Virus record (IMG/VR): IMGVR_UViG_3300021141_000006 | Location: 2,936-66,935 of that record | DNA from: a virus | Length of the DNA: 64,000 nt | Strand: one strand, 5' to 3' | Shown here: positions 723-34,186 of the stretch, piece after piece | How the letters are laid out: each line of letters begins with the position of its first letter | Position numbering within the stretch: position 1 is the first letter of the stretch | Notes under the pieces: model-generated | Databases searched by the model: none | Seen by the model: only the letters and a program-made list of their open reading frames with translations | Told to the model about the DNA's origin: nothing | Position numbers and translations under genes: made by a program

Positions 723-935
723 ATGAATCAAAAAGTAGAAGACCCAATTGTAATGTCAGTGATGACAAAGTTCTATGAACGTAGTCAAGTTGGTATTAAG
801 AAGTATAACACAATGCTCACGAGAGACGATTTAAGTACCCTAGAATGGATTTCCCACCTACAGGATGAGTTGATGGATGCCACGTTGTATTTGGAGCGCT
901 TAAAACAAGAATTTTATGAAAAAGTGGATAAGTAA
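723..935 (+). CDS. Small MazG-like / nucleotide pyrophosphohydrolase-like phage protein
   Basis: RSQVGIKKY...HLQDELMDATLYLERL motif typical of a common phage family; A-rich start. Confidence 0.6.
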   Translation: MNQKVEDPIVMSVMTKFYERSQVGIKKYNTMLTRDDLSTLEWISHLQDELMDATLYLERLKQEFYEKVDK

Positions 936-1071
936 TCACATCAGTGACCTAAACCAAGAGTTGAGGATGATCAATAAAGAACTTAAAAGACTCATTAATA
1001 AGAGGTCAATTATAAAGAGAAAAATTAAAATGTTCAACAAAGTATTAAATAACACAGATGAAACTGAATAG
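916..1071 (+). CDS. Small basic coiled-coil protein (51 aa)
   Basis: Hand-translated MKKWISNHISDLNQELR...TDETE*; overlaps both neighbours. Confidence 0.55.
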   Translation: MKKWISNHISDLNQELRMINKELKRLINKRSIIKRKIKMFNKVLNNTDETE

Positions 1072-1177
1072 ACAAGACCGCAGAGAAGAAATGGCAGCGT
1101 ATGGAACAATGTTTTTATTGGCAGTTGTATCAATCGTTTGTATCATCGTACTCATAACAACATTGATGTATGGATAG
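1058..1177 (+). CDS. Small membrane protein (39 aa)
   Basis: MKLNRQDRREEMAAYGTMFLLAVVSIVCIIVLITTLMYG*; one hydrophobic helix. Confidence 0.55.
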   Translation: MKLNRQDRREEMAAYGTMFLLAVVSIVCIIVLITTLMYG

Positions 1178-1250
1178 AAGATATGAAATGATGCTGTGCT
1201 TCCTATCAGGAATAACAGTTGGATATATAATGTTTAATGTATTACTATGA
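1170..1250 (+). CDS. Hydrophobic micro-peptide (26 aa)
   Basis: MDRRYEMMLCFLSGITVGYIMFNVLL*; overlaps the upstream stop and has an ATGA overlap downstream. Confidence 0.4.
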   Translation: MDRRYEMMLCFLSGITVGYIMFNVLL

Positions 1251-1321
1251 TCTATACCATCTACAAGTTAGCCGTAGTGCTTACCTTCTTTTACGTCTTG
1301 TTCAAAGATGCATTCAAATAA
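1247..1321 (+). CDS. Hydrophobic micro-peptide (24 aa)
   Basis: MIYTIYKLAVVLTFFYVLFKDAFK*; ATGA coupling. Confidence 0.4.
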   Translation: MIYTIYKLAVVLTFFYVLFKDAFK

Positions 1322-1322
1322 A

Positions 1323-1478
1323 TGTGTCAAATTAAGCATTCCCTATTTATATATATATTTTTATATATAATATTATTTTTTTTCTAAATCTAAAAGAAAA
1401 AAATAACTGACATAATCGACACATAGTAATAAAATCAGTACCTTTGACAATTCAAATCGACAACTAAAACGACACACT
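1323..1478. other. AT-rich origin-like element A with GACA-core repeats
   Basis: TGTCA..TTCCCTAT, (AT)n, T/A tracts, then CTGACATAATCGACAC, TTGACA, ATCGACA, ACGACAC; directly upstream of the primase-helicase gene; homologous to 56709-56830. Confidence 0.5.
1439..1446 (+). promoter_or_regulatory. Bacteroidota -7 promoter element TACCTTTG
   Basis: Matches TAnnTTTG about 33 bp upstream of the ATG at 1480. Confidence 0.55.
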
Positions 1479-1479
1479 T

Positions 1480-3897
1480 ATGTTAAAATACGTCACAATC
1501 TTCCAAAATATTAAGGAAACCTCTACTCCGTTCTTCAGAGATGTTAGTGTAATTCTTGATAGAGTTAAGGAAGGGGCTTCAAAGGACCTCGTAAAACGGA
1601 TACGTTCTGAGAAGAAGAAGCCCGAGAGAAACGAGCTAAAGAAATTGCTTCCGGCAATATGTTTTAGCGGAACATTCAACAAGCGATCTGATGATGCAAT
1701 CACTGAGCACAGTGGTCTAATATGTTTAGACTTCGATGGCTACGAGCGTCAGAAGGATTTACTCAACGACAAGGAGACATTCACAAAGAACAAGTATGTA
1801 TACTCTGTCTTTATCTCTCCATCAGGCAATGGCCTAAAGGTATTGGTTAAGATACCTGCAGATGCCGAGAACCACACCAACTACTTCAATAGCTTAGAAA
1901 GATACTTCAACTCCCCATACTTCGACAAGACATCCAAAAACATTAGTCGTGTGTGCTACGAGTCATACGACCCGCTCATCTACATCAATGAGCATTCATC
2001 ACTATGGGACAAGATTGAGGAACCTGAGTACAATGAGGTGGTCAAGCACCGTGATGCTCCAACCATTCCAATCACTGACGAAAACAAGATTGTTGAAATC
2101 TTGGTCAAGTGGTGGCTAAAGAAATACCCAATGGTTGAAGGTCAGCGTAACGCCAACGTATTTGTCTTGGCATCAGCGTTCAATGACTTTGGTGTCAACA
2201 AAAGCTTAGCGGCATACGTACTCAACCAATACGCCACACAAGACTTTGATATCGGTGAGATACAGCGCACCATTGACTCAGCATATGCACGAACGCAGAA
2301 CTTTGGCACCAAGTACTACGAGGACGAAGAGCGCATCAATCAGATACGTGCTAAGCTAAGACGTGGTGTATCACGCAAAGAGATACGCAATCAGCTCAAT
2401 GATACCAACCTTGATGGTGACGTCATTGAGTCAGTGCTCAATAAAGTTGAGGAAGAGAATTCAAAGCAGACCTTTTGGACCAAGAACGAAAAGGGGGCTA
2501 TAAAAATCGTACACATCCTGTTCAAGCAGTTCTTGGAAGACAACGGGTTCTATAAGTACTGCCCTGAAGGTGGTAAGAACTATGTCTTTGTGAAGGTAAC
2601 CAACAACCTCATCGACCATACCTCAGAGAAAGAGATTAAGGACTTCGTGCTCAACCACCTCATTGAGTTGGATGACATGACAATCTACAACTACTTCGCT
2701 GACCAAACAAGATTCTTTAAGGAGGAGTTCCTATCAATGATCAATACCATTGACATCTACTTTATTGAGGATACACGCAATGCATCATACCTCTACTACC
2801 GCAACTGTGCCGTCAAGATATCTAAGGGTGAGATTATTCCAATTGATTACTTAGACCTTGGTGGCTATGTTTGGAAGGACCACATCATTGACCGTAATTA
2901 CATTGGATGCGAAGTTGGTATCTGTGACTTCAGAACATTCATCAGCAACATCTGCGGTGGAGATGAGAGTCGTGTTGCATCAATGGAGAGTACAATTGGT
3001 TTTATGCTGCACGCATACAAGACCCGTGAGTACTGCCCGGCCATCATCCTCAATGATGAGGTGATCAGTGACAACCCTGAGGGTGGTACCGGTAAGGGTC
3101 TATTTATGAATGCGCTTAGTCAAATGAAGAAGGTCGTCACTATTGACGGTAAGTCTTTTACATTTGAGCGCAGCTTTGCCTATCAGTTGGTATCAGCAGA
3201 TACGCAGATACTTGTGTTCGATGACGTCAAGAAACACTTTGACTTCGAACGCTTGTTCAGTGTAGTGACTGAGGGTCTGACTTTAGAGAAGAAGAACAAG
3301 GACGCTATCAAGATACCATTCGAAAAGTCACCTAAGATTGCCATTACTACTAATTATGCCATAAAGGGGTCCGGTAATTCATTTGCACGTCGCAAGTGGG
3401 AGCTAGAGCTACATCAGTATTACTCGAAAGAGTTCACTCCATTGGATGAATTCAAGAAGTTGATGTTCGGTGATTGGGGTGATGATGAGTGGTGTCAGTT
3501 CGACAACTACATGATTGGCTGCTTGCAGGGATACCTCAACACAGGATTAGTTAAGAGCAAGTTTGTCAATCTCAATGTTCGTCAGCTATCAGCTGAGACA
3601 TGCCACGACTTCATCGAGTGGTGTGGGTTGGTTGACAATGCTGCTCCGAATGGCCTTCTTGATCCGGGTAATCGAGTGTACAAGCAAGACCTATACAATG
3701 AGTTCATCTCTGAGTATCCTGACTACGGTCCTAAGTCACGCATGACAATTAGCCGCACACGATTCTACAAGTGGCTTACTGCTTATGCTATGTTCAAGGA
3801 AGGTGTTCCACCTGAAGAGGGACGTGATCAACAAGGACGATGGATACGCATCAGACGTAAGCATGAACTTGAATACCAAGATACAATGCCATTCTAA
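1480..3897 (+). CDS. Primase-polymerase (BT4734/VirE-N-like) fused to primase C-terminal domain and SF3 helicase
   Basis: SGLICLDFD and FISPSGNGLK prim-pol motifs; EGQRN PriCT-like motif; Walker A GGTGKG, Walker B LVFDD, ITTNY motif C. Confidence 0.88.
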   Translation: MLKYVTIFQNIKETSTPFFRDVSVILDRVKEGASKDLVKRIRSEKKKPERNELKKLLPAICFSGTFNKRSDDAITEHSGLICLDFDGYERQKDLLNDKETFTKNKYVYSVFISPSGNGLKVLVKIPADAENHTNYFNSLERYFNSPYFDKTSKNISRVCYESYDPLIYINEHSSLWDKIEEPEYNEVVKHRDAPTIPITDENKIVEILVKWWLKKYPMVEGQRNANVFVLASAFNDFGVNKSLAAYVLNQYATQDFDIGEIQRTIDSAYARTQNFGTKYYEDEERINQIRAKLRRGVSRKEIRNQLNDTNLDGDVIESVLNKVEEENSKQTFWTKNEKGAIKIVHILFKQFLEDNGFYKYCPEGGKNYVFVKVTNNLIDHTSEKEIKDFVLNHLIELDDMTIYNYFADQTRFFKEEFLSMINTIDIYFIEDTRNASYLYYRNCAVKISKGEIIPIDYLDLGGYVWKDHIIDRNYIGCEVGICDFRTFISNICGGDESRVASMESTIGFMLHAYKTREYCPAIILNDEVISDNPEGGTGKGLFMNALSQMKKVVTIDGKSFTFERSFAYQLVSADTQILVFDDVKKHFDFERLFSVVTEGLTLEKKNKDAIKIPFEKSPKIAITTNYAIKGSGNSFARRKWELELHQYYSKEFTPLDEFKKLMFGDWGDDEWCQFDNYMIGCLQGYLNTGLVKSKFVNLNVRQLSAETCHDFIEWCGLVDNAAPNGLLDPGNRVYKQDLYNEFISEYPDYGPKSRMTISRTRFYKWLTAYAMFKEGVPPEEGRDQQGRWIRIRRKHELEYQDTMPF

Positions 3898-5381
3898 TGG
3901 CTATGGACTACAAGGGCTTGGGTGTTATTGATCGACTCCCAAGCTACTCCAATGAAAAGATGTTGCAATATAGCGAGCAACTACACAAAGTGATGACCCA
4001 AAAAGTTCCTGTGAAAGTTGGCAGAGGTAAGGCTGCTCGCATTGAGTACGAGCTAAAGTACAAGCGCAATGGGGACATCATTGAGAAGATGGAGAACAGC
4101 ATCAAATACTACAAACATTTATACGATAATGAGATGAGTAATACTATTGAACTAAGGCAATACCAAAAGGACATTGTTGAGAAGGCGTGTGAGATTATAA
4201 GAGTAAACAAATTTGTTTACTTGGCAATGGAGGTTCGCACCGGCAAAACACTTACAAGCCTAAGCATATGCGACAACCTAGAGAGTGTGAGCAACGTGCT
4301 GTTCCTTACAAAGAAGAAAGCAATCAAGTCTATTACTGATGATAGTGAGAAGATAGGAGGTGAATACAACCTCCACGTCATAAACTACGAGAGCATCCAC
4401 AAACTACCGGACGTTCGATGGGACGTAGTTGTGTTGGATGAGGCGCATGGCATGGGAGCGTTCCCTAAGCCTAGTGGACGTGCATCGGCAGTCAAGAGTT
4501 TAATTGCCAAGAATGGTTCACGCGTAATACTTCTATCGGGGACACCAACTCCTGAGTCATACTCGCAGATGTTCCATCAGGTGTATGGCATACCAACCAA
4601 CCCATTTAGAGCCTACAGCAACTTCTACAAGTTTGCCAAGGACTATGTGGATGTGAAGCAGCGCAAGATAAACGGACTGATGATCAATGATTATTCAGCA
4701 GGATACCAAACAATCATTGACAAGATGATACCATACACCATACGGTTCTCGCAGAGTGATGCCGGCTTCGTAGTAAAGACCACAGAGAAGATTATTGAGG
4801 TACCTGTTGACCCTAAGGTCAAGAGTATGATAAAGATACTCAAGAAAGATCTAGTCGTTCAAGGTAAGGAAGAGGTCATCCTTGGTGACACGTCTGTCAA
4901 GTTAATGAGCAAATTGCATCAGATGTACAGTGGTACTGTTAAGTTCGAGAGTGGTAACAGCATGGTACTTGCTACAACTAAGGCTGAGTACATTGCTGAC
5001 AACTTCAGCGACAAACGAGTTGGCATCTTCTACAAGTTCAAGGAAGAGCTTGAGGCTATCAAGTCAGTGCTTGGCGACAATGTGGCCACAACACTTGAGG
5101 ACTTTGACAACGACAAGTGTCAGCACATAGCGCTGCAGATTGTGTCAGGGCGAGAGGGTATATCTTTGAGGAGAGCTGACTGCTTGGTGTTCTACAACAT
5201 TGACTTCAGCGCCACATCATATTGGCAGGCCCGGGATAGAATGACAACTAAAGATCGTGAGGAGAACCATGTATATTGGCTATTTTCTGAGGGTGGAATT
5301 GAACACCTTGTATACAAGGCGGTATCCAAAAAGAAGGACTACACAGTATCACATTTCAAAAGAGATTTGCTAACTTTATAG
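3897..5381 (+). CDS. SF2 (SNF2/DEAH-like) helicase with about 80-aa N-terminal extension
   Basis: LRQYQ Q-motif, RTGKT, VVLDEAH, LSGTP, EGISL, QARDR. Confidence 0.88.
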   Translation: MAMDYKGLGVIDRLPSYSNEKMLQYSEQLHKVMTQKVPVKVGRGKAARIEYELKYKRNGDIIEKMENSIKYYKHLYDNEMSNTIELRQYQKDIVEKACEIIRVNKFVYLAMEVRTGKTLTSLSICDNLESVSNVLFLTKKKAIKSITDDSEKIGGEYNLHVINYESIHKLPDVRWDVVVLDEAHGMGAFPKPSGRASAVKSLIAKNGSRVILLSGTPTPESYSQMFHQVYGIPTNPFRAYSNFYKFAKDYVDVKQRKINGLMINDYSAGYQTIIDKMIPYTIRFSQSDAGFVVKTTEKIIEVPVDPKVKSMIKILKKDLVVQGKEEVILGDTSVKLMSKLHQMYSGTVKFESGNSMVLATTKAEYIADNFSDKRVGIFYKFKEELEAIKSVLGDNVATTLEDFDNDKCQHIALQIVSGREGISLRRADCLVFYNIDFSATSYWQARDRMTTKDREENHVYWLFSEGGIEHLVYKAVSKKKDYTVSHFKRDLLTL

Positions 5382-5385
5382 TCAT

Positions 5386-5625
5386 ATGACTGAACAGCAA
5401 ATCCAATCTAAACTAATTAAAGAGCTTGAGGCTCAAGGGTATTACGTTATCAAGTTGATAAAGACCAATAAGAATGGGATACCTGACCTGCTTGCAATAC
5501 CAAAGAAGAGCGATGTTGAGTTCTTCGAGGTAAAGACAGGTGTTGGGAAGGTGTCTGAGTTACAAAAGTATAGACATAAAGAATTAGAAGACCATGGGAT
5601 CTACGTTGAGGTATACAGAGGGTAA
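5386..5625 (+). CDS. VRR-NUC domain nuclease
   Basis: EQQIQ...NGIPDLL...FFEVKT...SELQK. Confidence 0.85.
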   Translation: MTEQQIQSKLIKELEAQGYYVIKLIKTNKNGIPDLLAIPKKSDVEFFEVKTGVGKVSELQKYRHKELEDHGIYVEVYRG

Positions 5626-5917
5626 GGCAGTTTTGTTTGATATTGACTACCCATTTCAAAAGAAAGTAAAAAAGTATTCTGAAGAGACAATAAAACAGAT
5701 TGTCTTTCAGATTGTGGATAATGTAAATTCATTTCCAAAGGACAATGAGTACACTCAGGATGTTTACGGAGTAATAAAGGGTAAAGACCCTTTGTTTTTT
5801 ATGATTGAATACCTGAACGAAGAAGATGAGATACCATTATTGGTAGACTTCTTAGAAGTTACAGTAGATGAATACTTAGATGCAATTAACGAAAACAAAC
5901 ACTTAAAACAATTATGA
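5594..5917 (+). CDS. Hypothetical acidic protein
   Basis: 107-aa ORF overlapping both neighbours. Confidence 0.65.
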   Translation: MGSTLRYTEGKAVLFDIDYPFQKKVKKYSEETIKQIVFQIVDNVNSFPKDNEYTQDVYGVIKGKDPLFFMIEYLNEEDEIPLLVDFLEVTVDEYLDAINENKHLKQL

Positions 5918-6435
5918 ACAACGAAAGCTTTGAAACAACAAAAACACTTGAATTTGTATCTGACTTCTTAGGATTTGACTTAACTCAAAAGTGCAGAAAG
6001 AGATATATAGTCGAGGGACGAATGATGTATGCTAAGCTCATGAAGCGTTATACAAATGTGTCTTTGTCTGACATTGGTCGATCAATTGGCAAAGATCATG
6101 CTACTATTATTCATTATATTAATAACTTTGGACATCTAAAGAAAACTGATCAGCAGTTTGCCTGCAAATTTGATATGATGGCAGACACCTATGAGGAGTT
6201 CCGAGAGACATGGTTTGATGATGTAAAGTTTGATGACAAGAGAAAGATTAAAGTTCTTGAGTCGTCACTTAAAGAACTAGTAGATAAAAAGAATGAATAC
6301 GAACGATACTTCAACAAGATTAAGCGCATTGACTCAATTGTACAGATGATTGAGCAGAGGACACCAAAGGGTGAAGAGGAGTACGTTGAATCAAAAATTA
6401 ATAGAATGTTTAACTCCATAATATATAACCCATAG
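5914..6435 (+). CDS. DnaA C-terminal (domain IV)-like HTH protein
   Basis: RKRYIVEGR...SLSDIGRSIGKDHATIIHY matches the DnaA domain IV signature. Confidence 0.75.
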   Translation: MNNESFETTKTLEFVSDFLGFDLTQKCRKRYIVEGRMMYAKLMKRYTNVSLSDIGRSIGKDHATIIHYINNFGHLKKTDQQFACKFDMMADTYEEFRETWFDDVKFDDKRKIKVLESSLKELVDKKNEYERYFNKIKRIDSIVQMIEQRTPKGEEEYVESKINRMFNSIIYNP

Positions 6436-6636
6436 ATGGCAAAGGGCAGCGGTATAGAGAGAGCTAAACTCATCCTTGTTTACATGGACCGTATACACGA
6501 CTGCCTAGATGACATCTACGAGGCGCTAGTTGACCGTGAATACCAAAAGTTTAGAGACGAGGTAGAGTCAGCGATCGAGCATCTCGAGCATTTACTTGAG
6601 AAAAAAGATGACTTATTTCGAGACAGAAGAGGATAG
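6436..6636 (+). CDS. Hypothetical protein
   Basis: 66-aa ORF abutting the upstream stop. Confidence 0.65.
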   Translation: MAKGSGIERAKLILVYMDRIHDCLDDIYEALVDREYQKFRDEVESAIEHLEHLLEKKDDLFRDRRG

Positions 6637-7024
6637 GTTACGTGAGAAAAAAGCGATTGAGCGCTTCGTGTCTATCTTTGATGGCAAATACCAAAAGTTA
6701 GGCGATCACGATATTGACTACAAAGTATTTGACAGTAAAGGAGCTCTTATCTCATACGTTGAGGTAAAGGGTCGCAAGAAGAATATTGCCAATGCTTATC
6801 CGTTGCCTGTCGGATGTAGAAAACTACTGAAGCTTATTGACAAGCGTCTCAACCCTGTGGTGATTTGGGCCTGCGATGATGGCATCATCTACGGCGAGGT
6901 ACAAAAACTAAAAGGTAAAGTCCTGTTCAGTGGTAGGCAAAATAGATTAAACGCAGTTAATGACGATGAGCTAATGGCCTACTATGACAAGCAGAAAGCT
7001 TTAAAATATATTCGCTACGATTAG
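6608..7024 (+). CDS. PD-(D/E)xK-like nuclease-fold protein
   Basis: DIDYKV...YVEVKGR; ATG at 6608 preferred over the upstream GTG. Confidence 0.6.
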   Translation: MTYFETEEDRLREKKAIERFVSIFDGKYQKLGDHDIDYKVFDSKGALISYVEVKGRKKNIANAYPLPVGCRKLLKLIDKRLNPVVIWACDDGIIYGEVQKLKGKVLFSGRQNRLNAVNDDELMAYYDKQKALKYIRYD

Positions 7025-10000
7025 TCTTCTTTTTCTTTGATAAACTCATCACCACCATTCTCCATCTCACTGATGTTTGATTTACCCATGGTGCTCTTAA
7101 TGAATCCAAGTTCATTGATAAGCTCATCGTAGTCAACACCTAATCTATTAGCTGAGTTAATCAAATCCATTAGCTCCTTAGCTTTAGCAGCATACTTTTC
7201 ATTAGCTCTTACCAAAGACTGTTCTGTTTTTTTATTTTGCTCCTGAATATCTTTTTTAGTAGCCTTAGGGTCTTCTTCAATCTCAAGACTCTTGTAATAC
7301 TCAGAGTTGTAGATTTTTCTGATATCTTTGAATGACTCATCAAACTCAGCAAGTTTATATCCAAACTGCTCCTTAACATCTGACTTTCTTACTTTAAGAC
7401 CTGTTGCATCTCCAAAAGCAATTTGACCTAGTGATTGTTCACTAGCAGCCGCTTTTCTTATTGACGTAATTGTTCCCGGTTCAACAACTTTATACACATA
7501 ATCTAATATCTTATCTGCCTTCTCAGAAAACGAATCTTCTTCGTTATAGATTGGCTTTCCGAAGTCATTCTCATTTCCTTTCAATTGAATAGCAAGGTTG
7601 GTTAAGATATCCGGGCCTTGGAATTGACCAACTAATTCAAGTGTTGATTGCTTGAATGAGTCAAGTAAGTCATCTCCTTTTAAAAATGCATTGAGTGCTT
7701 TATTGAGTCCACCGTGTGGATCAGATGCGCTAAAGTCAATATATTCAATCTGACCATCAGCAGCTTTTAATATGATAAGATCAGAGTTCTGAGACCAAGG
7801 AGGTAAGAAACTTCTTACGTCCTTTTCTTTTTTCTTCTCATCATCATCATCAAATAAAGCGCTAAGTACACCTCCAATACCTGTTCCTGCTGCATATCCT
7901 AAGTAAGAGAGCATAGCTGTCTTAGCGGCAAGATAGGAAGACGCACCTGCAACTCTCCTTGCTCCAATATTCTTAATTTTTTTATTCTTTGAACTAAGTT
8001 CATCTTTAGCTAAAGCAATTGTATTGTAAGCAGTACGATATGATTCAGCTTGGAATGATATGAACGATCCAATAAACAATGGGAACCTTCTGAGTCTCTT
8101 GATACCCTCAGGTATTCTACTGTATGTTGGATATGTATTCTTCACATTATTCGCTGCGATGTCAGATACCTCTTGCTTTTCTTTATCAGTCAATTGGTCT
8201 TTTGACTTGTTGTAAAGCGCATCAGCATATCTATTCATCTCAGTCTCATAGGCTGCAATTTTAAACATATCATCTTCAGCTTGATATGCATCTTCCATAG
8301 CAGATATAATTTTAGATGACCTTGATGATATTGCTTGTCTGATTTTACCCATCACTCCTTTGCGCTTCTTCATTGACAATCTTCTTTCTAAGAAACCATC
8401 CATGTCAGCATCCTTGAACATATCCCTAATCTCATTGATTCCAGCTCCCTGACGCATGATGCCTGCCTTGATGTACTCATCAATCTTGGCTTCTACCTCA
8501 GGCTTACTCATTGTCTTAAGGTCTTGCGCAACAACTTTTACTGCCTTACCAATCTCAATGAGACTGTGTCCGTTTACAGCAACAAATCCTAAATTAGAAA
8601 ATATGTTCTTGGCATGGGTTGCGACAGATCCAATTGTCTTAAGCCACTTCACCAAACCCATTGCTTTGTAGTAAACCTTGATTGCTTGTTGAGCCCAATG
8701 ATCTTCACCTTGCTTACCATTATATAAATCAAATGCCTCAGCAATCTCAGGAGTGGTCATAAGACCATTTAATGGTGACATTGTATCACTTCCCTCAGAA
8801 GCAATCTCAGTGTCAAATCCTTTAGGTCTTTGCGAGTCATTCTTCTCAAAGAAGAACTTACCCATACCTGCCTCTTTGACTTGCGTCAAGAACTGATGTC
8901 TTGCAACAAGACTTGAAATATTTAACACTGTTCGTGCATAGTTCATTGCAGGGTCAGAATATTCACCCATAAGCATTCTAATCTGCTCAGGAATCTCTTT
9001 CCTTTCCTTTAATGTAGAAAGGTCCTTAGAACCAAGCTTTGCCCCTTTAACCAAAGCTCCTGTCTCAGCGTCAGCAAAATATTCATCAATCTTATTATCA
9101 ACCAATATATCTAGCGCTTCATTAATAGTTGTTCCGGTACGAGCAGCTTCAGCTTTAGCCAATGAAATCATCCCCGGTTCTGTTCTCAAGAAGTTCTTAG
9201 CAGCTTGAAGTTCTTGTTCTCCTACTTTCTGTCTGAAGTTTTTGTTGTCAAAAATTTCATAAGACCTTGTGATGTAGGTTCCCATGTTCTCTCTAATGGC
9301 ATCAGCCATATCTCCTTCAACAGCACCTGTTGTAATAAGCATTTGAGATAGTCTGTCAATGTGATTACGCATCTCATTAGCTAATCCTGCAAATCCTGCA
9401 GGAAGTTGGATTGACTTGTCACCTCTTAACGCTTTGTCGAAAGCTTTCAATAGAAGTTCTTTGTCACCGGTAAACTTATCGAATAGGACACCAAACTTCT
9501 TAGCTGTCTTAGCAGCGCGATTGGCTTCAGCAGATATCTCACCCTCCATTTTTTCTTTGTAGGTAAAACCAATCTTTGGAAGCAATCCTTTAGATGTAAG
9601 GAATTGTTGCTTAAATCTTCTAGCACCATCAACAAATCTACCTACGAGTCCTTTGACTCCTGACTTCATGAATACCTTCTGTTCCTTGGTATAGTACTTA
9701 GATAAAGCCTCAGTCATCTCCTTGTTGGTGAAACCTGCAGCCTTTCCTTCTTGTCTGATCTCAGCATCAGTTTTCCCTGCCTTAGTTCCACTATCAACAA
9801 TCTTATCAGGGCTTGTTGTCTTCTGCTTTCTTACAGCAAATTTTTGCTTAGGCTCTCTTATCATAGGGAGAGCTTCTCCTTCTTCTTCTAAAACGTAATC
9901 AATTAATTCCTCTTTGGTTTCAAACTCTCCACCAAAGGCTTCTTCTAGATTAGGAGTAAAACCATTCTTTTCATAGAAGCTTATAAGAGCTTCTTTACTA

Positions 10001-13000
10001 AGACCTGTGTCACCAAATGGTTTGGCATCTAATGTCAATGTAATTCCAAGGTCATCGGCAGTATCTGTAATATCTTTCATTACAGATTTGCCCATACCTT
10101 GACCTTTATCCATAGAAGCAATACTTTGTATTGATATTTCTCTTGCTCCGTCTGCTTTATCAAATCTACTGAACTCTAAAAATGCTTTATCTCCGTAGAT
10201 AAATTCTTTACCAATAGGATTTCTTTGAATGTTTCCTTTATCATTAAGTGCAGTCAAGAACTCATTTATAATTTCATCATTGGTATATTGAGTGACTTTC
10301 TTTGTTTCCTCAGCTTTAGTTTCACTATTTCTTTTGACTAATTCGTCTATAGCTTCAGCTTTATTTTCGCCTAGTATGTCTCCATATATTGATTCAAAAC
10401 TATAAGGTTTAAGATTGCGTTTGTCAAATTCAGCATTAACCCATGTCTTCTGACTTCTGTCATAGTACATCTTTCCAATCTTCTTTCCATCCAATGTAAC
10501 AGTTGTTTCACCGTCAAACTCATCAATGGTAGTCTTTATCTTCTGCTTTCTTACAGCAGCCTCACCTTCTTTCTGTTGGCCTACTTCACGAGCTTCAATC
10601 TCTTGACCCGTCTCAACCTTTCTTGATAAGGTATTCATAAACTGAATAGCCTCACGGTCTGTCATTTCTTTGAGACCAATAGCTTTAGCTAATCTGTTTA
10701 AGAATCGAACGATAATGTTCTTGGATGCAGGTGGCAACTGTTTGTAGTTGTCTGCCAATATAGCAAACAATTCAGCTAACTTCTCTTCGTTCTTGATATT
10801 CTCGTCATAGTTACTCTCAAAGTCATCTAAATAACTCATAAGCTCAGTGGTACCCTCAGCTTTCTTGAGTGATTTACGAACTGAGTTAATCATTGAACGA
10901 GTTAGTCTTTGTGCCTCAACATCTGTGTTGACTCTTGATAGTATCAAAGCATGGAATACCTCGTGAGGTACCGTTCTATTGGTTGCCTTCTCAAGATTGA
11001 TGTGTATCTGACCTGTCTTTCTGTCATAAAGACCACCTTCTGATAGTCTTCCGTCCATATCTTTTGTTGCCTCAACAAATGCCTCAGGTGTTGCGTGAAC
11101 AACAATCTTTACCTTTGGTAATACTTTAGCAATTGCCTTGGCAGCTCTTGCAATTTGTGCAACAACTTTTTCCTTTCCTACATTACGTATTTTCGCTGCA
11201 GTAAAGTCATTCTGTGTAAGTACATTGTTTTGCTGAGTAAGATCATCCAATGTCTGATCAACCTGTGGCACTTCCTGTACCTCAATGGTCTCAATCTTTG
11301 CAGTTGGCGCTGCTTGTACAGTAGGTTGTACAACTTCTTCTACTACAGGTGCAACTTCCGCAGCAGGTGCTTGCTGTTCTTCTTGAGTAGGAGTTAACTG
11401 ATTTAAGAACTCAGTATAAGTACCTCCATCATTTTTTCTAGCTTCAGCATATGCTATTGGGTTAGCTTCAAGCTCAGCTGCAAGACCTTGTTTTTCTTCT
11501 TGCGTAACAGTATCTCCAAGATTGTTTATTGATTCCCTCTCCGTTTCAACAAAGCTATCTATAACGATTTGCCTTTCTTCTTCAGTGAGCTTTGTTTGAG
11601 CTTGCCCTCCTTCAGTTTCTTGTCCGACAACTTCTTCTGCGATAGCTTCTCCGGTAACGACTTGAGGTTCTGATTCGGGTACTCTTTCCTCCACTTGTTG
11701 GCCAACTCCGGTTCCTGACTGAACAGGAACCGCATCTGCGCCTTGCTCTTGAACGGCATAACTTAATCCTTTTAATTGTTCGTTAATCTCATCGACTCTA
11801 TCCTTTTGTTTTGCAACAAGGTTAGGGTCTTTATCTTTTATTTCTTTATCTAAACTTTCTCTTTCCATCAATAACCCAAAGGCTTCCCTTTGAGCTCCGA
11901 CTGAAAAGTTTGTTGGTATTTGTCTTAGTGCAGGATACGCTTCATTGATGGATTTTATTTCCTCATCAGCTTGTTCCCTTGTTATTTGATTATCCTCAAC
12001 CTTTTTATTTATTGAAGATATAGCTCCCTCACGGGCATCATCATTTAATATGATATCTCTATATACAGCAAATCTATTATTTGAAACTTTGTTTGATATA
12101 GGTTCTACTACACCGACTGATGCTGTACTACCCATACCACCGGCTACAGCTCCAACAAGAAATGCATTACCTGATTCTTTTAATAGCTGCCCTATACCTT
12201 CAGTAGTTGATAGGTCAGCAGCATCTTTAAAGAATTTATTCTGTACAATTTGATTGTATATTTCTTTGGATACAGTACCACCACCTTCTTCCTTGGCTTT
12301 GTCTAATTGGTTTGATTGGATGATTCTATTAGCTACATCCTTTTCTACTCCCTCAAAAATCTGCTGAGTAAACTCGGTACCACCCTCAACTATACCTGCA
12401 CCTGTAATCTTAAGCATTCCATTAGCTACGCTCGCTGCAACACTTTTGTCAATTGCACTTTTAATTTCTAATAGCGAAGCGTTTTTTGGAAGAGAGCTAA
12501 ATGTCTTTGACATGATATACTCAGAAAACATTCCGAGCGTTTTGTTTTTTGCAGCGCCTGTAGCGACTTTAGCTCCTAACTTCTCAAGAGCTCCAATGAC
12601 TAGACCATAAGGTACAGACATTATTTTCTTTTCATTTTCGCTCAATGCATCAAATTGAGGACCTCTCATTTGGTCTTCAAGTGCATTGTATGACATTGCA
12701 AAGAATCCTGCATTAGTTCCTGCGGTAGCAAGACCACCACCTACAGCTCCTAAGCTTTCTCCTATCGCAAAAGCGGCTTGTTCTATAACTCCTCTATCAG
12801 TTGACTTTGCATATTCTTCAGTAGTTCCCATACCAAATGCATCAGGAACACTTCTTAAAACTTGATTTGCTTTGTTTTTTACTGATTTCTGAATTTCATT
12901 TTTTATCTCATCATCACTGAATCCTAACTCTTTTAGCCTTTCATATTCACCCGGTGTAATTGCATCTGCAAGAGTTTTAGCATCTGTTACAGCTGCTGCT

Positions 13001-14262
13001 CCTGCAATACCAAAGTCAATCATCGCCTGAGACACATCTGTCAATCCTTCTCCAACACCTCTAAGTACAAGACCTGTAAGGCTACCTTGTTTCTCTCTTT
13101 CGGCAGCCGTAATAACTTTGGCATCTTCTAAGTTATTTGTAAGTTTATCAATCTTTTCAGCTTTACCAATGACACTTGACATAATGTCTCTTCTTTGGGT
13201 CAAAGACTTACGTTCATTCTCAAGCGCTGCTGATCTTGAATCAAAATCAGCCTTAGACATTTTACCGCCTTTTACATCCTGATTGAATTTAGCAACTTTT
13301 TGCTCGTATGATTTTAAGTCAGAATCATAAGTATCAGCTTTAGCTCTAGTCATTTCTCCATTAAGAAGTTGTCTTTCTCTTTCAAAATAACTATCTACAT
13401 CCATTCCTTCTAGCAATGATGCTTTGAATTTATTTGGATTAGACCCAACTAATTCGACTAAGTCTTCTACGCTTTGTGCATTTTCAAACTGTTCTCTTTC
13501 TGATTTCTTTACTAGATTGGTAGAGACAAAACTTTTTAATTCCTTGTCAGCATTAGGATCTGATAAGTCAATTGTTTCTTGGTTTAGAATAGTACTATTA
13601 ATACCATCTCCTATTTTTGATGTGACTGTTAGTTGCCAACCTAATTTTTTAAATTCTAAATTTGTTCCTTCAAATTGCTTATTTAAAATATTGGCAGTTG
13701 TCTCCTCATCTAAATCTCTAAGTTTTTTTGAGGATGGAATTTCATTAATAGAAGAATAAGCCTCAAACTCTTTTTTACCAAAGTCTTCAGCCATCATTTG
13801 CATGGCTTCTTTGTCACTCAATGCATCAAATTTTCGGATTGGCTTTGTTTCTTTAGGTTGCTCAAATGTACTTTCAACCTTTTGACTTGGGGCCTTAGCT
13901 TTTTTCTGAGCGTTCTGAACCTGATCTATATAGTCGTCAGTTCTATATTTCTTTTGTGAAGTAGGCTCTTCAGTAACGCCTTCAAATCTTCGAGAAGAAG
14001 AACCCGATGTAGGTTTTTCCAATTTGGAAGCCGATACGGTAGACTCTTTTTTTTTTACAGGTTCTTGATTGAAACCAAGTTCAGGGAACTTTGAATTTAC
14101 AACACCGTAATCGTAATTATTCTTTTCGGCAGTAGCAACATAGTCTTTCAATAATTGCTGATCGTATCCTTTCAATTCAGGGAATTTGCCAAATACAGTA
14201 TTCCAATTGTAATTATACTTCTGTGCAGTAGCAATGAAGTCTTTTAATAGTTGTTCATTCAT
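7021..14262 (-). CDS. Giant virion ejection / polyvalent protein (about 2413 aa) with HExxH zincin-like and GNAT-like domains
   Basis: Last gene of the late block; PHEVFH at 10951-10965; GNAT motifs KGQGMGKSVM...FYEKNGF; N-terminal 32-aa tandem repeat (QLLKD..ATA.K.NY....V..KFPEL x2); ATG at 14262 follows a promoter. Confidence 0.8.
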   Translation of the reverse strand: MNEQLLKDFIATAQKYNYNWNTVFGKFPELKGYDQQLLKDYVATAEKNNYDYGVVNSKFPELGFNQEPVKKKESTVSASKLEKPTSGSSSRRFEGVTEEPTSQKKYRTDDYIDQVQNAQKKAKAPSQKVESTFEQPKETKPIRKFDALSDKEAMQMMAEDFGKKEFEAYSSINEIPSSKKLRDLDEETTANILNKQFEGTNLEFKKLGWQLTVTSKIGDGINSTILNQETIDLSDPNADKELKSFVSTNLVKKSEREQFENAQSVEDLVELVGSNPNKFKASLLEGMDVDSYFERERQLLNGEMTRAKADTYDSDLKSYEQKVAKFNQDVKGGKMSKADFDSRSAALENERKSLTQRRDIMSSVIGKAEKIDKLTNNLEDAKVITAAEREKQGSLTGLVLRGVGEGLTDVSQAMIDFGIAGAAAVTDAKTLADAITPGEYERLKELGFSDDEIKNEIQKSVKNKANQVLRSVPDAFGMGTTEEYAKSTDRGVIEQAAFAIGESLGAVGGGLATAGTNAGFFAMSYNALEDQMRGPQFDALSENEKKIMSVPYGLVIGALEKLGAKVATGAAKNKTLGMFSEYIMSKTFSSLPKNASLLEIKSAIDKSVAASVANGMLKITGAGIVEGGTEFTQQIFEGVEKDVANRIIQSNQLDKAKEEGGGTVSKEIYNQIVQNKFFKDAADLSTTEGIGQLLKESGNAFLVGAVAGGMGSTASVGVVEPISNKVSNNRFAVYRDIILNDDAREGAISSINKKVEDNQITREQADEEIKSINEAYPALRQIPTNFSVGAQREAFGLLMERESLDKEIKDKDPNLVAKQKDRVDEINEQLKGLSYAVQEQGADAVPVQSGTGVGQQVEERVPESEPQVVTGEAIAEEVVGQETEGGQAQTKLTEEERQIVIDSFVETERESINNLGDTVTQEEKQGLAAELEANPIAYAEARKNDGGTYTEFLNQLTPTQEEQQAPAAEVAPVVEEVVQPTVQAAPTAKIETIEVQEVPQVDQTLDDLTQQNNVLTQNDFTAAKIRNVGKEKVVAQIARAAKAIAKVLPKVKIVVHATPEAFVEATKDMDGRLSEGGLYDRKTGQIHINLEKATNRTVPHEVFHALILSRVNTDVEAQRLTRSMINSVRKSLKKAEGTTELMSYLDDFESNYDENIKNEEKLAELFAILADNYKQLPPASKNIIVRFLNRLAKAIGLKEMTDREAIQFMNTLSRKVETGQEIEAREVGQQKEGEAAVRKQKIKTTIDEFDGETTVTLDGKKIGKMYYDRSQKTWVNAEFDKRNLKPYSFESIYGDILGENKAEAIDELVKRNSETKAEETKKVTQYTNDEIINEFLTALNDKGNIQRNPIGKEFIYGDKAFLEFSRFDKADGAREISIQSIASMDKGQGMGKSVMKDITDTADDLGITLTLDAKPFGDTGLSKEALISFYEKNGFTPNLEEAFGGEFETKEELIDYVLEEEGEALPMIREPKQKFAVRKQKTTSPDKIVDSGTKAGKTDAEIRQEGKAAGFTNKEMTEALSKYYTKEQKVFMKSGVKGLVGRFVDGARRFKQQFLTSKGLLPKIGFTYKEKMEGEISAEANRAAKTAKKFGVLFDKFTGDKELLLKAFDKALRGDKSIQLPAGFAGLANEMRNHIDRLSQMLITTGAVEGDMADAIRENMGTYITRSYEIFDNKNFRQKVGEQELQAAKNFLRTEPGMISLAKAEAARTGTTINEALDILVDNKIDEYFADAETGALVKGAKLGSKDLSTLKERKEIPEQIRMLMGEYSDPAMNYARTVLNISSLVARHQFLTQVKEAGMGKFFFEKNDSQRPKGFDTEIASEGSDTMSPLNGLMTTPEIAEAFDLYNGKQGEDHWAQQAIKVYYKAMGLVKWLKTIGSVATHAKNIFSNLGFVAVNGHSLIEIGKAVKVVAQDLKTMSKPEVEAKIDEYIKAGIMRQGAGINEIRDMFKDADMDGFLERRLSMKKRKGVMGKIRQAISSRSSKIISAMEDAYQAEDDMFKIAAYETEMNRYADALYNKSKDQLTDKEKQEVSDIAANNVKNTYPTYSRIPEGIKRLRRFPLFIGSFISFQAESYRTAYNTIALAKDELSSKNKKIKNIGARRVAGASSYLAAKTAMLSYLGYAAGTGIGGVLSALFDDDDEKKKEKDVRSFLPPWSQNSDLIILKAADGQIEYIDFSASDPHGGLNKALNAFLKGDDLLDSFKQSTLELVGQFQGPDILTNLAIQLKGNENDFGKPIYNEEDSFSEKADKILDYVYKVVEPGTITSIRKAAASEQSLGQIAFGDATGLKVRKSDVKEQFGYKLAEFDESFKDIRKIYNSEYYKSLEIEEDPKATKKDIQEQNKKTEQSLVRANEKYAAKAKELMDLINSANRLGVDYDELINELGFIKSTMGKSNISEMENGGDEFIKEKED
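9819..10558. repeat. Perfect 20-bp direct repeat TCTTCTGCTTTCTTACAGCA (9819-9838 and 10539-10558) flanking an in-frame 720-bp cassette
   Basis: Both copies read directly; the 720-bp offset equals 240 codons; both encode AVRKQK. Confidence 0.9.
11559..11759 (-). CDS. Overprinted small basic protein (MPFKSKAQ...), out of frame inside the giant gene
   Basis: 66 aa; N-terminus resembles stand-alone phage MPFKS-type proteins recalled from memory; ATTAAAAGGATTAAGTT directly upstream; locally raised GC. Confidence 0.6.
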   Translation of the reverse strand: MPFKSKAQMRFLFSQEPELANKWRKEYPNQNLKSLPEKLSQKKLSDKKLKEGKLKQSSLKKKGKSL

Positions 14263-14265
14263 ATG

Positions 14266-14273
14266 CAAATATA
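14266..14273 (-). promoter_or_regulatory. -7 element TATATTTG, 3 nt before the ATG (possibly leaderless mRNA)
   Basis: TATATTTG-CAT-ATG on the minus strand. Confidence 0.55.
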
Positions 14274-27578: not shown

Positions 27579-28661
27579 TTATATTCTTTTTGCACTTGTG
27601 ATTTTCAATCCATTGCCGGAGCCCGGATTTACTTCTCGGATTTGCATTCCTCCTTTGGAGATTGATTCAGGTGCTCTGCGCTCAGACATATTCACATTCT
27701 TTATTTTTTTAGTGACATTATCTGTCGCATCGGCCTGACCTTGTTCGTAGAAGAACTTGGCAAACTTCTCAGGATTCATTGCGATCGCTAAAGCTCTATG
27801 GTATCCCGCAGCATCACTTACCATTCCGCTCTCATCCAAATACTTATTGATAAAGTTTGTTGGAGTTGATTGGAGCTTCTTAAGCTCTGTTGCGTCACCG
27901 GGAGAGAAAACCACTTTCTTGTCGTCAATATTGAACTCAAAACCTTTGAACTCTTGACTAAACACCTCATCAGTTTTCTTTAGGAACCAATCACGTTTGC
28001 GACCATTTTCCTCCTCTAGGGTTTTAGCTTGTTGTATGTATTGTTTATACGCCTCAAACTCTTCTTTCTCTTCAGAAGCAATTGTACTTCCCCTTGACTC
28101 AAGAGGTTGTTTGTATTTCTCCTTTTCAGATGTGAAGTAATCCTTGGCCTTAGCAATAGCCTTTTTCTTAGCAATCTTAGCTTTCTTAATTTTAGAGTCA
28201 TCATCTAGATCCTCATCATAAGCAAACTCTTCCAACATGGCATCAATGTCGTCCTCATCGAGACCAACCTCTGTAGCCATGAGGTATTGCTTTAGCATTT
28301 TATCAGGATTCATGGAATCAAAGTCTTCTTGCAATTTTAAGTAGTCTTGGATACCACGCCCTGTTTCTTTCTTGTACTTCAAGAATGCTTCAACATCTTC
28401 AGGTAACGGTTCGTTTTCCTGACGCTGAGCCATCAACTCGTCAAACGAATTGATTTCCTTGTTGTACCTTTTTCCCAAATATGAAAGAACGTCTTCTTCT
28501 TTTAGCTCAGGTGTCTCAATTGGCGGCTGCTCAATCGGAGGTGTTTCAATCACAGGTGGATCGTTATTTAAACTCTCCTCATGCTTTTGTAATAATTCCT
28601 CTTCAATCTGAGCTGCGCTCTTTTCAACAATTCCTGTTACTTCTTTTACTTTAAATTCCAT
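27579..28661 (-). CDS. Capsid scaffolding-like acidic protein
   Basis: Highly acidic 360 aa between portal and capsid genes. Confidence 0.7.
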   Translation of the reverse strand: MEFKVKEVTGIVEKSAAQIEEELLQKHEESLNNDPPVIETPPIEQPPIETPELKEEDVLSYLGKRYNKEINSFDELMAQRQENEPLPEDVEAFLKYKKETGRGIQDYLKLQEDFDSMNPDKMLKQYLMATEVGLDEDDIDAMLEEFAYDEDLDDDSKIKKAKIAKKKAIAKAKDYFTSEKEKYKQPLESRGSTIASEEKEEFEAYKQYIQQAKTLEEENGRKRDWFLKKTDEVFSQEFKGFEFNIDDKKVVFSPGDATELKKLQSTPTNFINKYLDESGMVSDAAGYHRALAIAMNPEKFAKFFYEQGQADATDNVTKKIKNVNMSERRAPESISKGGMQIREVNPGSGNGLKITSAKRI

Positions 28662-33397: not shown

Positions 33398-33626
33398 CTT
33401 TTACCTCCTCCAATATAGCCTTCTCGGCTTCGATTTTATTTAGAATTTCGAATGCATCAAATATAGCTAATCGTTTTGACGCAGCAGCGTTCTTTAATTT
33501 GTCCACTGACAAGTCATCTTCAGGATCAGGTTTAATGATATCCTCTTTAGCAACTTTGATGAGTTGTTCAACGGCTCTGTATCCTGCCTCAATAATATTA
33601 CGTCTTAAGTCTTTCTCTCTACTCAT
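33342..33626 (-). CDS. Putative terminase small subunit
   Basis: 94-aa helical protein directly upstream of and overlapping terL. Confidence 0.5.
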   Translation of the reverse strand: MSREKDLRRNIIEAGYRAVEQLIKVAKEDIIKPDPEDDLSVDKLKNAAASKRLAIFDAFEILNKIEAEKAILEEVKDESPKLDIKQGFAERRAK

Positions 33627-34186
33627 AATTTCACTGTGATTTGATGGTCATACATGCGGTATAGCTTCTCATCGTCTACGATAAACTCATACTCACTCTC
33701 AGGCTTAAAGCACACCTTGTCTCCGGCTTTTACTCCGGCCTTTATAAGCGACTCGTTTGGATAGCGCATAATTCCCATCAGTGGTTCTTCGCTTAATGGC
33801 TTGTAGATGTACGACTCCTCAGGTTTTACAGGCTCAACAAAGCAGTACTTGTCGTAGGCCATCCAAGACTCTCCATCATGGAACATATAGAATTGGTCGG
33901 GCTCAATAAAAAATAAATCTTCTTTGAAAAAACTCTTACCGCTCTTGCGACGACCCTTCATGTCGTTGTAAAACTTGAATACGTTGTGATGTACAAGTAG
34001 CTTATGCCCGGGCTTGATAGGCCCTTCATAGCCTAGTGGTATCTCGACAACCTCTGCCTCTCTATTTGAGAACCTGTGGTCTTCCTCTGAAGTGCTTATA
34101 ATAAGGTCGATACCACCAATATCCTTGGTGTTGTTGTATCTCTTCCCCTTAAGTGGTTTAGTGATAAAGTAAAATGGTGATTGCAT
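33623..34186 (-). CDS. Divergent GroES-like co-chaperonin (two GroES-like halves)
   Basis: GGIDLII...AEVVEIP..IKPGHKLLVHH and GVKAGDKVCF.PESEYEFIVDDEKLYRM. Confidence 0.6.
   Translation of the reverse strand: MQSPFYFITKPLKGKRYNNTKDIGGIDLIISTSEEDHRFSNREAEVVEIPLGYEGPIKPGHKLLVHHNVFKFYNDMKGRRKSGKSFFKEDLFFIEPDQFYMFHDGESWMAYDKYCFVEPVKPEESYIYKPLSEEPLMGIMRYPNESLIKAGVKAGDKVCFKPESEYEFIVDDEKLYRMYDHQITVKL

Follow-up and report, generated by a model that had tools for sequence, protein, structure and literature searches.

A probable small gene with its own start codon, embedded in the +1 frame of a giant virion protein gene and recurring in related phages

Does a short open reading frame (ORF) lying out of frame within a much larger viral gene encode a protein of its own, or is it an accident of the larger gene? 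The question is raised by the DNA analysed here, a window of 64,000 nucleotides (positions 2,936 to 66,935 of the IMG/VR virus record IMGVR_UViG_3300021141_000006). That record is complete, has direct terminal repeats and is 66,935 bp long, so that the window covers most of it. A preliminary description of this window had pointed to a small basic 'MPFKS' gene within a giant virion protein gene, and had proposed that the locus truly codes in two frames and that the linker encoded by the main frame is shaped by the hidden gene. Judged from sequence comparisons, the ORF at 11559..11759 is probably (at a rough probability of 0.85) a real protein-coding gene with its own start codon, embedded in the +1 frame of the giant virion gene. 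The parts of the locus are:

11559..11759, minus strand: candidate small gene of 66 codons and a stop, starting with ATG and embedded in the +1 frame of the host gene
11646..11759, minus strand: conserved N-terminal domain of the small protein (codons 1-38), from an alignment of 78 sequences, with two short predicted helices
11562..11645, minus strand: Lys-rich basic tail (codons 39-66), varying in length and sequence among relatives, with a predicted local distance difference test score (pLDDT) of 52-61
7021..14268, minus strand: giant virion structural protein gene (the host gene), 2415 codons, matching phrog_22602

The small ORF starts with an ATG at 11759 and ends with a stop codon finishing at 11559 on the minus strand, and its translation is MPFKSKAQMRFLFSQEPELANKWRKEYPNQNLKSLPEKLSQKKLSDKKLKEGKLKQSSLKKKGKSL. 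It lies entirely within the 2415-codon ORF on the same strand, and the distance between the two starts (14268-11759 = 2509 = 3x836+1) places it in the +1 frame of the host gene. The bases directly 5' of the small-ORF ATG are ...ATTAAAAGGATTAAGTT, and the host frame across the small ORF reads ...LSYAVQEQGADAVPVQSGTGVGQQVEERVPESEPQ... The small-gene DNA is thus read in the host frame as an acidic linker at about residues 837-903 of the giant protein; this stretch is of low complexity, with an isoelectric point (pI) of 4.05 and a net charge of -11. The small protein is strongly basic (pI 10.3, net charge +13), with 17 Lys and 2 Arg in the whole protein. The GC content is 0.48 in 11600-11799 versus 0.32-0.43 in the flanks. 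The coordinates, strand, translation and Lys-rich tail given in the preliminary description were all reproduced, and the raised GC and the acidic low-complexity linker that it had noticed were both confirmed by measurement. A second copy of the small gene was not found by a search of the whole genome.

Related loci were sought in IMG/VR contigs with a profile-guided pattern; 366 relatives were confirmed among 595+ pattern matches, and the best 80 loci were kept. These loci were found through small-frame similarity, and one of the search patterns did not require Met. The small ORF, 41-65 aa long, starts with ATG in 80/80 of these viral loci, whose contigs bear more than 50 different metagenome identifiers, and the alternative-frame start and ORF are thus conserved in relatives. 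In 66 of the 80 loci the small ORF lies inside a giant open frame, whose length ranges from 762 to over 3300 codons and which in many cases runs off the end of the locus, in 11 it lies inside a post-portal scaffold-like gene of 392-431 codons, and in three it is free-standing. All 77 nested copies share one host-frame register. In the 78-sequence alignment (A2) the residues M1, P2, F3, K4, S5, K6, Q8, L35 and P36 of the conserved head are invariant. Across relatives the small ORF is 58-85% identical, and the flanking host domain is 25-37% identical to that of the window, except in L006 and L007 (99%) and L038 (81%). It is this conservation in other phages that lifts the small ORF above chance. 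Length alone does not set it apart, since the giant gene contains five other same-strand alternative-frame ORFs of 51-62 codons.

The gene also occurs in cultured and deposited phages. By tblastn, 68 Flavobacterium elemovirus records were matched, and all among the matches listed lie under a giant coding sequence (CDS) annotated as 'structural protein'; single tblastn E-values against cultured phages were weak (0.06-0.3). For example, elemovirus MT497067.1 contains an unannotated 42-codon ORF in the +1 frame within its 3694-aa 'structural protein' CDS. The closest deposited relative of the window, the complete genome MW202828.1 (portal 76% identical), carries an unannotated 43-codon copy inside the giant CDS 741..12320 (L177/L178). 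The expectation that standard annotation would miss the gene was thus borne out in both genomes. Three further observations concern these two genomes. The 3859-aa giant CDS of MW202828.1 is labelled 'reticulocyte binding/rhoptry protein', an evident annotation artefact. Its small-gene copy belongs to a two-cysteine subtype, as in elemoviruses, whereas the copy in the window is of a cysteine-free subtype despite the 76% identity of the portals. In the giant CDS of MT497067.1, a second, truncated 10-codon ORF starting MPFKSK (L001 5605-5637) precedes the 42-codon copy by about 400 nt and shares its register, and it may be a decayed second cassette or a chance occurrence.

Which of the two frames is under selection was analysed in a set of 64 distinct 111-nt cores. 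Entropy at small-frame codon positions 1, 2 and 3 was 0.60, 0.36 and 0.96 bits, respectively, and the mean amino-acid identity was 0.73 in the small frame versus 0.48 in the host frame. Stops occur in the third frame in 57/64 cores and in the host frame in 0/64. When changes were sorted by their effect, the rate was 0.18 for those non-synonymous in both frames, 0.64 for those synonymous in the small frame only, and 0.15 for those synonymous in the host frame only. The small-frame omega (dNN/dNS) was 0.28 over all pairs (bootstrap 0.23-0.34) and 0.14 in 169 close pairs, values which are biased downwards because the loci were chosen through small-frame similarity. The host-frame omega (dNN/dSN) in the overlap was 1.2 over all pairs and 1.38 in close pairs. 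These values indicate strong purifying selection on the small frame and none that is detectable on the host frame within the overlap.

The same figures bear on the simplest alternative, namely that the frame is open by chance and seems conserved only because the host-frame peptide over the same DNA is. The other alternative-frame ORFs of the giant gene and the weak single tblastn E-values are what such a chance frame would lead one to expect. However, the host-frame peptide is the less conserved of the two, its omega is at least 1 versus 0.14-0.28 in the small frame, and variation is highest at the third codon position of the small frame. The flanking host domain is likewise less conserved in most relatives than the small ORF, and the family also occurs free-standing, where there is no host gene to conserve it. 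An origin of the signal by chance is thus extremely improbable.

Two lines of evidence are free of the bias introduced by selecting loci on the small frame, namely codon choice at F3 and variants within populations. The F3 codon is TTC in 88/88 nested copies, from loci averaging 40% GC and including some doubtful nestings in high-GC contigs, and it is TTC in 30 and TTT in 15 free-standing copies. The fixation of TTC in nested copies is explained if TTT is avoided there because it would make a TAA in the host frame. Stops in the host-register frame were found in 0/88 nested copies, in 25/45 free-standing copies and in 5/5 forms in which the head is an N-terminal domain. The host frame thus appears to be actively kept free of stops across the overlap, and this is the sole constraint visible there.

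Population variants were collected from contigs of four lake and freshwater metagenome runs, over 2 kb around the ORF. Outside the ORF, 21/27 variants were synonymous and 6/27 non-synonymous in the host frame; inside it, where only 13 variants were among those listed, 2/13 were synonymous and 11/13 non-synonymous in the host frame (Fisher p = 3.7e-4), and 7/13 were synonymous in the small frame. Among single-nucleotide polymorphisms (SNPs) in the conserved head, five were synonymous and three non-synonymous, the latter all in the variable codon 21. The metagenome variants therefore repeat the switch of the constrained frame at the ORF. The locus shows the features of an embedded out-of-frame gene, with a nested ORF, separate purifying selection and a host frame kept open, and the proposal of a dual-coding locus whose hidden gene shapes the main-frame linker is upheld by the omega values, the TTC codon and the population variants.

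Conservation of the DNA itself could have another cause and need not involve a second coding frame: it might reflect a structured RNA, a site for packaging or regulation, or a hotspot of recombination. The cassette contains the best-conserved nucleotides of the region (entropy about 0.5 versus about 1.3 upstream, where the ungapped alignment is too shifted for a clean host-frame periodicity and was used for overall conservation only), and its occurrence in varied flanking contexts would also suit a mobile or regulatory element. A nucleic-acid element would not be expected to vary with a three-base periodicity that follows the small frame, nor to be near saturation for small-frame synonymous changes (0.64) with the peptide kept. 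The ATG and the stop are conserved with a tail of variable length between them, and the region is unusually unstructured. Judged by codon periodicity and folding energy, with no search of Rfam made for known RNA families, such an element has next to no likelihood of being the explanation, as little as a chance frame.

If the small ORF is translated, how is it initiated within the host coding sequence? The relevant feature is:

11760..11784, minus strand: putative translation initiation region, an A-rich, weakly structured leader within the host coding sequence

In the window copy, AAGGA stands 7 nt before the ATG, so the Shine-Dalgarno (SD)-like sequence noted in the preliminary description is present; it is not general, however, as an SD-like 4-mer occurs in 11/68 distinct upstream regions. 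More consistent features are an A at -3 in 72% of these 68 regions and an A content of -20..-1 of 0.59 versus 0.36 in controls, which falls in the top quartile in 61/63 loci. The minimum free energy (MFE) of -25..+16 averaged -1.31 kcal/mol versus -4.82 kcal/mol in control windows of the same host genes (63 loci), and the start region was within the least structured quartile in 57/63 loci. In the available parts of one report, Bacteroidetes are described as lacking SD sequences, with initiation adjusted through mRNA structure and the nucleotides upstream, A at -3 among them (PMC6847099). The hosts of all 86 cultured phages with a homologous portal are Flavobacteriia. The A-rich unstructured start and the Flavobacteriia hosts together make internal initiation on the late mRNA the likeliest route. 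We infer that ribosomes on the late mRNA of the structural gene would start the small protein independently, at the invariant ATG.

Alternatively, programmed +1 (or -2) ribosomal frameshifting from the host frame into the small frame might yield the peptide, solely as the C-terminus of a shortened giant protein. Frameshift products are common in phage structural modules. Two database proteins also carry the small peptide in frame behind host-like sequence, P0011 (1075 aa, peptide at 1034-1074) behind giant N-terminal sequence and P0034 (99 aa) behind a scaffold-like N-terminus. The contig of P0011 itself was not found among the viral contigs, and its relatives were taken from metagenome contigs; the two relatives whose contigs cover the site show the ordinary nested layout, with a stop 5 codons upstream. 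The in-frame form of P0011 is therefore likely to be an indel or an assembly error; a natural fused variant is less probable. Beyond these proteins, frameshifting would leave unexplained why ATG is present in 80/80 loci, including those found with the pattern that did not require Met, and why the start region resembles an initiation site. The small frame is closed by a stop 0-1 codons before the ATG in the window and in several other loci, and with few exceptions a stop is no more than 31 codons away. In the 68 distinct upstream regions neither a conserved upstream motif nor a slippery motif was found, and the family members are mostly free-standing genes. Frameshifting as the only route to the peptide is thus very unlikely, and an embedded gene with its own start remains the preferred explanation.

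Is the small gene tied to the giant gene? Two further features are needed here:

11760..12209, minus strand: host-frame domain ending directly before the small gene (...GLLMERESLDKEIKDKDPNLVAKQKDRVDEINEQLKGLS)
27579..28661, minus strand: post-portal scaffold-like gene of 360 aa, a homologue of the alternative host gene, without the cassette in this genome

By BLASTP, the 11760..12209 domain has matches in the upstream 150 aa of 25/73 other loci, most of them ending at the cassette. This type of upstream domain occurs in about 25/78 giant contexts (22 by motif and 3 by eye) and the rest differ, so that the sequence just upstream of the cassette in giant genes is of many unrelated kinds. In L085, one of five full-length giant homologues that lack the nested ORF, the same upstream domain is kept and is followed by an A/P/E/Q-rich linker without the small ORF. 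When giant homologues were found through the C-terminal domain, 2/11 loci carried the ORF, both nearly identical to the window. In G005, a record from among these five giant homologues, the ORF lies in the acidic N-terminal region of a 385-aa post-portal gene. This gene and the 392-431-codon hosts are homologous to the 360-aa post-portal protein of the window; for example, the latter and the 409-aa gene that hosts the ORF in L074 share 35% identity (E 8e-55), and the order portal, scaffold-like gene and phrog_13704 protein is the same in the window and in L074.

A tree of 127 peptides (45 columns) was unrooted and left 71/124 inner branches open, and only the L096-L050 pair and the clustering of context labels were used from it. 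The labels were clustered, with 17 changes versus a shuffled mean of 50, and were not monophyletic. The scaffold-embedded G005 copy pairs with a giant-embedded copy with a value of 97 in the Shimodaira-Hasegawa-like approximate likelihood ratio test (SH-aLRT). These facts suggest that the small gene is a portable unit which is not tied to the giant gene.

The wider family points in the same direction. At E<=1e-3, a profile search with alignment A2 among 1.84 billion proteins retrieved 2715 cluster representatives, of which 159 also passed E<=1e-10; 104 of the 150 representatives listed are at most 100 aa long, with the match nearly always starting from residue 1. Another 79 viral loci, drawn from the commonest subfamily, comprised 47 free-standing copies, 6 N-terminal-domain forms, 13 copies in frames longer than 1500 codons and 13 doubtful ones. 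The doubtful copies, in 151-701-codon frames of high-GC contigs, were not counted as dual coding, because long open frames arise there by chance; the small ORF more probably precedes a terminase gene in these contigs. Stand-alone homologues of the MPFKS protein, which the preliminary description had placed in many aquatic phages, exist in large numbers. Annotated examples are gene 48 of Streptomyces phage FlowerPower, which stands between a 'peptidase' and a holin, and a 39-aa gene between the portal and head genes of phage 023Pt_psg01. In the high-GC loci L104, L112, L113 and L166, the small gene is immediately upstream of, and perhaps slightly overlaps, a TerS-like helix-turn-helix (HTH) gene or the large terminase gene; this placement is another link to the DNA-packaging module.

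In longer proteins the head domain precedes Gly-zipper or membrane-like segments, DUF5661, DUF6321 or zinc ribbons, and in one long protein it stands before a module of LigD phosphoesterase and ligase. Among library families phrog_1375 alone matches the small protein, and only weakly (E 0.05, 15 bits). With the phrog_1375 profile, the small gene was the sole match in the window genome (E 7.4e-4), and free-standing relatives matched phrog_1375 at E 1e-2 to 4.9e-8; the link of the small protein to this family is transitive, through profile A2.

De novo overprinting is the usual proposed origin of viral overlapping genes in the available parts of two papers on the subject (PMC8227390, PMC3494269). 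For the present gene it would mean birth inside a giant gene and a later escape to free-standing positions, and the unrooted, poorly resolved tree gives no direction that would speak against this. However, the family reaches well beyond phages with giant genes, for example to Streptomyces phages and to high-GC contigs where it stands by terminase genes, and its head forms the N-terminal domain of many unrelated proteins. One cassette occurs in two unrelated host genes and beside many unrelated flanking domains. Furthermore, it is the host frame that lacks constraint in the overlap, and a young overprinted frame would lead one to expect the reverse. An origin de novo within the giant gene is thus improbable, and the word 'overprinted' in the preliminary description, if taken in this sense, is probably wrong, the small-gene family being far wider than the giant genes. 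As the family is broad and the host frame neutral, the small gene probably predates the overlap.

An old small gene would then have come inside structural genes by capture, insertion or fusion. The only other frame able to stay open would encode a harmless acidic linker, and this is the reason proposed for the single constant register. The product of 41-66 aa, with a net charge of about +13, would consist of a conserved head with two helices, followed by a Lys-rich tail that varies. AlphaFold2 with the alignment gave a pLDDT of 86-96 over residues 1-40, with helices at 6-15 and 17-26, and a tail helix of low confidence. The best fold matches in BFVD were uncharacterised phage proteins of 44-97 aa, and an Atlas search returned only viral hypothetical proteins. 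Sequence matches in the Protein Data Bank (PDB) were rejected as spurious, being designed repeat proteins in which each single stretch was insignificant.

What might the small protein do? Its basicity with a variable Lys-rich tail, its neighbourhood of packaging and morphogenesis genes and its fusions as an N-terminal domain, whose partners resemble internal or ejected proteins or nucleic-acid enzymes, tentatively suggest a late protein that binds nucleic acid or resides in the virion or head interior, a possibility that falls short of an even chance. A more specific proposal, which is rather unlikely to hold in full, is that the MPFKS unit is a self-contained 'gene in a linker' module whose basic product would be bound to DNA or to the portal in the head interior and would leave with the DNA. 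Such a module might be shuffled by recombination among the disordered linkers of giant injected proteins and of the scaffold-like protein, and would gain late co-expression at no cost in genome length. The preliminary description had considered that the basic product could chaperone, inhibit or package the giant protein, or could bind DNA; the occurrence of the gene without any giant gene argues against a role tied specifically to the giant protein, and a specific partnership of the two is weakened.

Several points weigh against reading 11559..11759 as a functional embedded gene, in addition to the abundance of alternative-frame ORFs in the giant gene, the downward bias of omega, the small number of variants within the ORF and the in-frame forms of P0011 and P0034 mentioned above. 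The small gene is not universal: it is missing from five full-length giant-gene homologues of 30-37% identity, and two of these five records (91% and 100% complete) carry no copy anywhere. The Cellulophaga phages phi38:1, phi46:3 and phi18:3 are also without it. No RNA run containing window 10800-12800 was listed. Neither the small protein nor any of the 78 aligned members had a match in Pfam, no Foldseek match in PDB had an E-value under 6.5, and the functional proposal has charge, gene neighbourhood and domain fusions as its sole basis.

The host gene closes a structural module in the order terminase, portal, 360-aa scaffold-like protein, phrog_13704 protein, further virion proteins and giant gene. 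Family searches of the giant protein gave phrog_22602 'virion structural protein' as the only significant match (residues 1654-2272, E 5e-33), besides a weak match to GNAT acetyltransferases at residues 1389-1438 (E 0.048). A HEVFH (HExxH-like) motif lies at about residues 1090-1100 (window about 10950-11000, minus strand). Polyvalent phage proteins are injected giant virion proteins built as a string of recognisable enzymatic or anti-defence domains. The HEVFH motif and the weak GNAT match are hints that the giant protein may likewise be a multi-domain, possibly enzymatic, injected protein. Its N-terminus (residues about 5-70, window about 14060-14260, minus strand) consists of two tandem units of about 32 residues, LLKDFIATAQKYNYNWNTVFGKFPELKGYDQQ / LLKDYVATAEKNNYDYGVVNSKFPELGFNQE. 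At window 11331, in an A/P/E/Q-rich stretch downstream of the cassette, 21 bases are absent in the contig of one metagenome run, an in-frame deletion of 7 codons which fits a length-tolerant linker.

Elsewhere in the window, a second giant gene at 39800-47083 (minus strand, 2427 aa) contains repeated tail-fibre-like stretches matching phrog_9942 and phrog_18345, six each. Just upstream of the terminase gene there is a GroES-like co-chaperonin gene (33623-34186, minus strand; phrog_13932, E 6.8e-21), and MW202828.1 has both groEL-like and chaperonin-10-like genes.

If the small ORF is a gene, a conserved family lacks annotation in hundreds of genomes of aquatic phages, among them those of cultured Flavobacterium elemoviruses and a deposited complete genome, because gene callers forbid long same-strand overlaps. 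The locus would be an unusually clean case of natural dual coding, in which the embedded gene is conserved and the linker of the giant protein is the passenger, reversing the usual picture of overprinting. Acidic low-complexity linkers of giant virion proteins may be dictated by a gene in another frame, which bears on how such proteins are interpreted. Were the 'gene in a linker' proposal true, disordered linkers of giant phage proteins would be a general hiding place for functional genes that are invisible to current annotation. Elemoviruses and their host are cultured, and one base change that is synonymous in the host frame removes the start codon of the small gene.

How does this gene compare with known systems? 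No published description of it was found in a search that left many subscription papers and supplementary tables outside its reach. The phrog_1375 profile matches the conserved head of the small protein; members of that family are annotated free-standing genes, whereas the embedded copies are unannotated. In DUF3008 (PF11450) there is a similar motif at the N-terminus, MP.KS..Q, and another, LP.K, at the C-terminus, and one Atlas match (score 0.80) was to a viral cluster in which 15% of the members carry DUF3008. As a family assignment DUF3008 was rejected, since no hidden Markov model (HMM) match at E<=1 was obtained for the small protein, the 78 aligned members or the genome.

Small basic proteins carried inside phage heads are known, such as T7 gp6.7 and the internal proteins of T4. 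Like these, the small protein is small, basic and encoded in or by the head-morphogenesis module, which makes a functional analogy plausible; no similarity to them in sequence or fold was found. In the accessible part of a preprint, the Escherichia coli microprotein GndA is reported to be made from an out-of-frame alternative ORF (altORF) in gnd and to act on the product of its host ORF (bioRxiv 10.64898/2026.10.22.760973). As far as that part goes, GndA resembles the present case in being a small protein encoded out of frame within a larger annotated gene; it differs in being cellular and narrowly distributed, whereas the phage gene also occurs without the giant gene, so that a partnership is not implied.

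The closest precedents are the lysis gene E of phiX174, which lies inside the scaffolding gene D, and Rz1 of lambda, which lies inside Rz, both being out-of-frame embedded phage genes. As in these systems, a complete small +1 gene is contained in a larger late gene on the same strand, both frames are open, and the small gene is probably translated by internal initiation on a shared mRNA. Unlike in them, the small gene appears to be the older, more widespread and more constrained partner and the host frame a neutral linker, and the cassette occurs in two unrelated host genes as well as free-standing. The small protein has neither a membrane segment nor a lipobox and is not obviously a lysis protein, and its host gene encodes a giant virion protein, from 2400 to over 3600 aa long. 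The gene thus belongs to the known class of out-of-frame nested phage genes, and what is unusual here is an old and constrained embedded partner that is found in unrelated hosts in one register.

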